64,000 nt of DNA. Origin: Podarcis muralis. Lineage: Eukaryota. Under the pieces are notes generated by a model. The model ran no database searches. It worked only from the letters and a program-made list of their open reading frames with translations, and had not been told where the DNA came from. Positions 44,542 to 44,963 of the stretch are shown here, one piece after another. The position numbers and the translations under genes are program-made. How positions within the stretch are numbered: position 1 is the stretch's first letter; every line of letters starts with the position of its first letter. The stretch covers positions 59,520,001-59,584,000 of the forward strand of contig NC_135656.1 in NCBI RefSeq assembly GCF_964188315.1. Reading direction: 5' to 3'.

Positions 44542-44963
44542 TGTAGCGCGTGGCAGTGATTCTCCACTGCTGACCAGTCTGTGCTGACCATACCCACCAC
44601 GAGGCAAAGAAACAGCTAAAGATGCCTTGCCATCTCCACCTCCAGTGGAGAAGAGGTGCAAGGACCAGAGGATGATGGTAGGAGCCTTAACACCGCTTCT
44701 GGGCAAGCTGGACAGGAGGGAAACACGCCCTTGCCATTGCCCATCCTGTGCAGTAGTTTGGGGCGCAGAGAGGGGAGGAGATGTTTGTGGGTAACGAAAC
44801 TCTTATGTTGGGGGAGGTCCAAAAAAAGACCACTCCCGGATTCTGCTATCGATTTAGCCAGACATGAGCTTTGGGGCTCTTCACTGTAAATAGTTAGCAC
44901 CAAAATAAAGCCTGTAAAACACAGGTCGGAGTCCTGCCTAGTTACTCTAGAGCAACTGCAACA
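44542..44963 (+). mobile_element. Solo LTR of a related, older Gypsy family (boundaries approximate)
   Basis: TG...CA; 44750-44852 aligns with 6877-6978 (TTATGTTGG...CCACTyyCGGATTCTGCTAnCGA); AATAAA at 44904-44909; no TSD found. Confidence 0.75.

Follow-up and report, generated by a model that had tools for sequence, protein, structure and literature searches.

Can a solo LTR, left behind by a retrotransposon in a lizard genome, carry a peptide that was selected as protein? The question arises from a stretch of 64,000 nt of Podarcis muralis DNA (here denoted the window; GCF_964188315.1, NC_135656.1, positions 59,520,001-59,584,000, forward strand). The original prediction held that a diverged solo LTR, at 44750-44889 of the window, preserves through synonymous changes the same peptide as the LTR of an intact element, and that the segment is under protein-level selection across distinct families and may be an unnamed functional domain hidden in LTRs.

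The solo LTR and its intact relative

The LTR at 44627-44974 is indeed solo, and its family (denoted B1) is a decayed sister of family A, to which the intact element at 6675-12172 belongs (Table 1). We found 922 B1 candidates in the genome at first look, and the best 40 scored showed 87-92% identity. The full-length B1 LTR is ~449 bp long, its first 20 nt being identical to the start of the family-A LTR. In complete copies the B1 frame starts with VRELP at LTR base 2 and finishes with DSASD, followed by a stop. The stop is TGA in 27 of the 30 scorable B1 copies, at the same position as the stop of the intact element. The solo copy reads TTA there and its frame is therefore open to 44889; the open frame reported by the prediction is thus a true but copy-specific feature.

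Comparison of 44758-44853 with 11970-12065, without gaps over 32 codons, showed that 19 of the 32 residues are identical and that 9 of these 19 have undergone a synonymous codon change, with 62 of 96 nucleotides identical. The counts of the prediction, including all five codon pairs that it quoted, were reproduced codon by codon; the peptide match is real, although the matching stretch is shorter than the interval given. When the same substitutions were moved at random, 12.7 +/- 1.9 residues stayed identical (P=0.001, with no correction for the hand-picking of the segment), and identity was 18/31 in the pol frame versus 10-16/31 in the five others. The differences of the pair fall 12/9/13 over codon positions 1/2/3, with little third-position excess in this single pair, and a larger LTR sample was therefore needed. 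Four of the 13 non-identical residues (G2, C9, W11, I31) represent rare or private decay of the solo copy.

The related element is an intact Ty3/Gypsy chromovirus, whose Pfam architecture comprises gag and PR-RT-RH-IN-SH3-chromodomain. Its Pol extends ~190 residues past the chromodomain, through the polypurine tract (PPT), and ends 304 nt inside the 3' LTR. Family A is young and abundant; the C-terminal part yielded 8369 candidates, of which the best 150 show 89-100% identity, and in many of these the 1374-codon frame is complete. Among named proteins the closest are gene models of Podarcis muralis in UniRef, denoted 'Gypsy retrotransposon integrase-like protein 1'. We also observed that gag and pol overlap by ~200 nt in different frames (7944-8148), Pol being made probably via a frameshift, and that two aromatic cage residues of the chromodomain, the first and the third, seem to be absent (type II-like) when the translation is read by eye.

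Table 1. Positions of the features of the solo LTR and of the intact family-A element within the window
Feature	Position	Strand	Remarks
5' LTR, family A	6675-7082	+	408 bp; 1 mismatch vs 3' LTR; target duplication GGTTC
11-nt self-primer ACTTTCGGATT	6954-6964	+	complementary to PBS
gag frame	7021-8148	+	Retrotrans_gag, Ty3_capsid, zf-CCHC
PBS	7086-7096	+	exact complement of 6954-6964; adjoins 5' LTR
pol frame, PR-RT-RH-IN-SH3-chromodomain-acidic tail	7944-12068	+	1374 codons; stop within 3' LTR
Chromodomain PF00385	11346-11489	+	E 2.9e-9; residues 1135-1182
TIM-like motif 1	11514-11573	+	hydrophobic stretch, acidic linker, LEGF (FVGF in most sister families)
TIM-like motif 2	11643-11699	+	W..VF, acidic linker, FRGF
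Polypurine tract	11750-11764	+	in-frame read-through
3' LTR	11765-12172	+	first 304 nt = last ~100 Pol residues + stop
Conserved 45-codon block	11931-12065	+	P-x-[ST]-P, basic stretch, RRR-[LV][GS]VKxLLCW-basic, PLxDSAS[DE]; bipartite-NLS-like pattern
5' target-site duplication ATGCC, solo LTR	44622-44626	+
Solo LTR, B1	44627-44974	+	~100 bp missing near 5' end
Fossil copy of conserved 45-codon Pol/integrase-tail C-terminal block	44719-44853	+	contains 32 residues 44758-44853
11-nt putative self-primer ACTCCCGGATT	44832-44842	+	predicted RNA 5' end; overlaps PLPD codons
Family stop codon position	44854-44856	+	TTA in solo LTR
AATAAA, putative polyadenylation signal	44904-44909	+
3' target-site duplication ATGCC, solo LTR	44975-44979	+

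Read-through of pol into the LTR

We assembled 178 LTR copies from this genome, which form 15 clusters (A 50, B1 35, C 31, D 31, B3 11, B2 7, and small groups). All well-sampled families have the frame open between LTR base 2 and one common stop. Measured from the LTR start, the conserved core lies at a modal distance of 277 nt in A, 304 in B, C, D, E2 and E3, and 307 in E1, values that are multiples of three apart. LTR start and core are in frame in 62 of the 81 copies first scored, and the frame is open from the LTR start in 49/50 copies of A and 29/31 of C. Junctions between the upstream tail and the 3' LTR are in frame in A (50/50), C (3/3), C2 (1/1), D (3/3), D2 (1/3), E2 (1/1) and at locus L123; two further rows (L096, L102), matched by a spurious pattern, were counted by hand as out of frame. 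The same fusion of the LTR frame to integrase is present in a protein from a Logan contig (P0006). Coverage in four raw RNA runs was low and partly sense-biased, with 12 reads spanning the PPT-U3 junction; among the indexed sequence records that contain the element none is RNA.

The B-type families present a weaker picture, with only 2 of 9 junctions in frame. In one of the two (L100, B3) the frame stays open over 456 codons between integrase and the stop in the LTR, with the help of two offsetting indels, and in the other (L101) the LTR is cut off. The other seven are decayed copies, shifted out of frame within G runs of 15-30 nt, the runs differing between copies. At 29 other B1 loci we found neither gag nor pol within 1.5 kb, nor a B1 3' LTR with internal sequence in the 1.5-kb flanks, and searches for B1 parents by LTR+PBS and PPT+LTR patterns, run with no positive control, yielded 0 matches. 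Hence, fusion of the frame to pol, which the prediction had named as a check on full-length relatives, was found in the sister families A, C, D and E2 and in no B1 copy, and the B-type junctions do not reveal the parent state of B1/B2.

One B2 element (L078:4828 to L079:5236 on G000:C20, ~36 kb) has a matching duplication, GCCAC, and contains gag and pol remnants. It is split by nested insertions, including an element of the sister family E2 in L091. The 30-Mb contig C20 also holds 11 of the 14 old tail-bearing copies and many family-A copies, often nested, a clustering that suggests a non-recombining, W-like chromosome.

Protein-level selection and nucleic-acid constraints

A maximum-likelihood codon model of the last 45 codons in 12 real copies yielded omega 0.25 (p 6e-20 vs omega=1), and 0.19 for the 32 codons that match 44758-44853. 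Omega was 0.26 when the primer codons were left out (p<1e-11 vs omega=1) and 0.27 when both LLCW and primer codons were left out (p 2.5e-12). The other forward frames of the 45 codons gave 1.5 and 1.9, and all subsets in frames +1/+2 gave 1.1-3.0; stops to be masked numbered 11-27 in the other frames versus 1-2 in the pol frame. Net dN/dS between families over the same codons was 0.19-0.50 in the pol frame (9/10 pairs, A-C being synonymously saturated), mostly 1-5 in frames +1/+2 (exceptions 0.96 and 0.39), and 0.56-1.48, that is ~1, in the same frame past the stop. The neutral baseline of this net estimator lies below 1, because within-family piN/piS is 0.38-0.67, and the A, B2 and B3 copies come partly from protein searches, an ascertainment that favours low dN. 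Restricted to copies found by DNA, the comparison of B1 with L098, L118 and L112 showed a synonymous excess (p 0.0007-0.008); p was 0.08 with L100, and with L097 N:S was 18:8 (p=1).

Differences between families are third-position rich (A-C 14/8/28, C-D 9/4/20) and not evenly spread over codon positions; an even spread is what the prediction had itself set against its claim. Copy-private non-CpG changes, taken as post-insertion decay, are by contrast distributed 111/99/120 when pooled, with N:S 226:104. The A and C proteins are 71% identical in the block and 69% in the chromodomain, with a synonymous divergence (pS) of 0.77 in the block versus 0.65 in the integrase core. Thus the last 45 codons are under protein-level purifying selection across families, in the pol frame, as the prediction proposed. 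The target-site duplications bear out its solo LTR, but the preservation that it ascribed to this copy belongs to the families: with private changes even over codon positions, 44627-44974 itself preserves nothing and is a passive, decaying fossil of the selected frame. A single RNA is the template of both LTRs, and it is in this way that solo LTRs come to carry the frame. Between B1 and B2 the signal is non-significant (net omega 0.50, CI 0.22-1.26; permutation P=0.37), and therefore read-through may have been relaxed or ended on this newest branch.

Two other accounts of the reading frame were weighed against these data. The open frame might merely place the end of Pol close to the poly(A) site, as a way of escaping NMD for instance, or might be an inert extension in which residue identity hardly matters. 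We regard this as improbable: in all families ~100-150 nt separate the stop from the LTR end, and the mid-U3 is low-complexity and weakly constrained (omega 0.29-0.90), as this account would have it, but an open frame alone gives neither omega 0.25 nor the near-invariant RRE.RRR, LLCW and PLxDSAS. That the selected frame is antisense, a reverse-strand frame sharing its third positions, is hardly credible. Its omega is also low (0.21-0.53), which is the expected mirror of selection on the sense frame, and it was rejected because stops interrupt it at the LLC codons of solo and intact copy alike; it is joined to no ORF.

The prediction had cautioned that part of the conservation could reflect the primer or a TATA box. 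The PBS of these elements is complementary to an 11-mer of the LTR, the arrangement for self-priming described for Tf1/sushi elements in PMC4600332 and PMC6317226. The match is 11/11 in A, 11/11 in two of three C copies and 10/11 in the third, and 9/11 in a decayed B2 copy. Two variable bases of the primer follow the PBS (TT/AA in A, AA/TT in three copies of C, CC/GG in B2). In PLxD the two bases fall on the third base of the Leu codon and the first base of the x codon, so the motif is partly RNA-constrained, and the caution regarding the primer, just upstream of the stop codon, was well placed. The caution regarding TATA was not: LLCW is kept while the DNA changes from CTTTTATGT to CTACTCTGC. 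In family D, where LLCW is encoded by CTA CTC TGC TGG (Leu codons in 26/30 copies), the AT-rich DNA is lost and the peptide kept, ruling out TATA as the cause of LLCW conservation.

Could the whole block nevertheless be conserved as DNA or RNA (promoter, TATA, self-primer), the peptide match being a by-product? Such an explanation is very improbable. It can point to the covariation with the PBS of the 11-mer under PLxD in A, C and B2, and, in family A, to a TTTTATG that precedes the primer by ~31 nt. However, the low omega persists without primer and LLCW codons and is frame-specific, synonymous sites in the block are near saturation, and LLCW outlasts the AT-rich DNA in family D. A DNA/RNA-only explanation is refuted for the block as a whole and holds for ~4 of the 32 codons only. 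The four RNA runs, at low depth, revealed no cluster of transcript starts or ends, and a start at the primer 11-mer was not located.

Candidate functions of the tail and its known relatives

We consider it fairly likely that the peptide is the selected C-terminus of Pol/integrase in lizard Ty3/Gypsy chromoviruses, encoded by the 3' LTR, and most likely a bipartite NLS with a conserved hydrophobic linker. In the sampled families pol crosses the polypurine tract into U3 and ends at one common stop position, and according to this reading purifying selection in replicating lineages keeps the LTR-encoded C-terminus. The last codons (PLxD) would be doubly constrained, as the covariation suggests, by also forming the 11-nt self-primer pairing with the PBS. 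The tail would presumably stay on the mature integrase, where the RR..x10..basic cluster may bind importin-alpha and the [LV][GS]VKxLLCW linker a further partner, by analogy with the targeting domain inside the bipartite NLS of Ty1 integrase.

The classical bipartite NLS consensus consists of two basic residues, a spacer of 10-12 and a stretch in which 3 of 5 residues are basic. A pattern of this kind spans LLCW in A 50/50, C 27/31, B1 24/26, B2 6/6, D 12/30 and B3 4/11 copies; shuffled basic peptides match in 4-45%, and the pattern is weakly specific. The basic clusters flank [LV][GS]VKxLLCW at bipartite-NLS-like spacing in most copies of A, C, B1 and B2, and in fewer copies of D and B3. The end of Ty1 integrase is, according to PMC7459421, a bipartite NLS with a targeting domain in its linker, the same basic-linker-basic order at the very end of the protein with conserved linker residues, and by this analogy it is the closest working model for the block. 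The two differ in that Ty1 belongs to Ty1/copia, has a 29-residue linker (TD1) and targets Pol III genes, whereas the lizard linker is ~10 residues long, lies in the LTR and goes with no tRNA-gene targeting.

Does the block amount to the functional domain that was proposed? The 45 codons gave no Pfam match, no usable ESM Atlas match and no confident structural match. The segment is selected, but looks like a linear motif that ends a disordered tail, rather than a folded domain. An AlphaFold model of the integrase from a 27-row alignment had a mean pLDDT of 34.6 and was uninformative, with no confident prediction of a TIM helix.

Between chromodomain and PPT we noticed two tandem TIM/IBM-like motifs, each with a hydrophobic stretch, an acidic S/T linker and FxGF. 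In 8/8 pairs the motifs are more conserved than the linker between them, and the region also occurs in L091, L100, L112, L118, L128, L130, L133, L136 and P0006. PMC9987994 describes TIMs as a short helix, an acidic linker of 8-16 residues and FxGF, the last being characteristic of LEDGF/HRP2 partners. The lizard motifs resemble those of JPO2, KMT2A, IWS1, MED1 and CDC7-ASK in their hydrophobic stretch, acidic S/T/G-rich linker and tandem FxGF. They differ in their location, an integrase tail of a retrotransposon upstream of the PPT, and in the LEGF of family-A motif 1. Recruitment of LEDGF/HRP2 by these motifs is possible. A search of PDB sequences with the acidic tail gave chance matches (best E 0.36) and no known TIM.

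The block might instead serve in chromatin targeting, as an animal counterpart of the plant CR motif, and with the two TIM-like motifs tether the integration complex to a host chromatin or transcription factor, nuclear import being secondary. We hold this to be rather unlikely. An NLS alone would not need the conservation seen in the hydrophobic [LV][GS]VKx[LF]LCW and in P-x-[ST]-P, the LTR-encoded integrase end of plant CRM group A is, according to PMC3059260, a targeting motif, the upstream helix-like, acidic and FxGF motifs are conserved and fit the published description of TIMs, and the apparent lack of two cage aromatics in the chromodomain would be in keeping with it. Against it, the acidic tail matches no known TIM among PDB sequences, and tRNA genes are not targeted: only 1 of 60 loci lies near one, a tRNA-Lys(CTT) (L145:1977-2049), with ~50 bp between it and the 5' end of an LTR of family C. 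A more specific proposal, which we put forward tentatively and at similarly modest odds, is that the integrase tail mimics host proteins as a targeting module, in which the two TIM/FxGF motifs would recruit H3K36me readers of the LEDGF/HRP2 type and the LTR-encoded basic-LLCW segment would dock a second host factor. If so, U3 would be promoter, self-primer template and coding sequence of a targeting module at once, and the HIV integrase cofactor would be reached by mimicry of its cellular partners.

As bipartite NLS or otherwise, the tail can be set against several known systems. The lizard elements resemble Tf1/sushi (V-clade vertebrate chromoviruses) in the order of gag and PR-RT-RH-IN-chromodomain, in the 5-bp target duplication and in a PBS complementary to an LTR 11-mer and not to a tRNA (PMC6317226 and PMC4600332), but differ in the ~190 residues past the chromodomain, ~100 of them in the 3' LTR, and in the stop just past the self-primer. 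A polyprotein ORF that enters the 3' LTR is likewise found in plant CRM group A, whose LTR part carries the conserved CR motif (PMC3059260), and in the beet elements Beetle7 and Bingo1-4/7 (PMC3605345). CRM group A has the CR motif in place of the chromodomain and a PBS of the tRNA-Met type, whereas the lizard elements keep a canonical chromodomain upstream of the PPT and are self-priming; unlike the CRM and beet elements they have a vertebrate host, and they show no Pfam match to the CR motif. The likeness to the plant elements is likely convergent. The general LTR layout, and hairpin priming in some chromoviruses, are covered in PMC3601003.

Coding sequence also overlaps U3 in the nef of HIV/SIV, the sag of MMTV and the bel of foamy viruses, as separate accessory ORFs; the overlap with U3 is common to them and the lizard element, in which it is the C-terminus of Pol.

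When the family-A tail was run with HMMER against all 1.84 billion representatives, 2 matches resulted, P0006, which is real, and a spurious repeat protein; word-indexed protein searches returned 3 Podarcis muralis polyproteins and one Podarcis gene model. No relatives outside Podarcis and the Logan contigs were found in these protein libraries, which are not vertebrate genome assemblies and so provide weak evidence of absence. The open-access literature searched gave no account of such a tail in a vertebrate element and no report of TIM motifs in a retrotransposon; the overlap may be described in repeat databases or subscription papers. Against that literature, what appears to be new is the LTR-encoded integrase tail in a vertebrate chromovirus; ORFs entering the 3' LTR were already known from plant chromoviruses, and these precedents and the narrow detectable range limit the surprise. 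The nuclear entry and site choice of vertebrate Ty3/Gypsy integrases are poorly known, and the tail offers peptides short enough to be tested, namely two TIM-like motifs and a candidate NLS/linker.

Matches are spread over many contigs. A selected protein motif survives as a fossil in thousands of solo LTRs of the lizard genome, and U3 divergence here therefore cannot be treated as non-coding. Gene models can extend into the LTR frame. The last ~90 residues of a Podarcis muralis SEC7-domain gene model (P0031, UniRef A0A670J3D8) are the B-type LTR frame, probably a run-on of the model into a solo LTR; exonisation is possible.

We also observed other repeats in the window. A short family lies in both orientations, some copies with palindromic ends (MITE-like), at 5500-5745, 24262-24510, 35934-36899, 53384-53629 and 57183-57410, and hairpin elements are present at 165-307 and 61409-61582.
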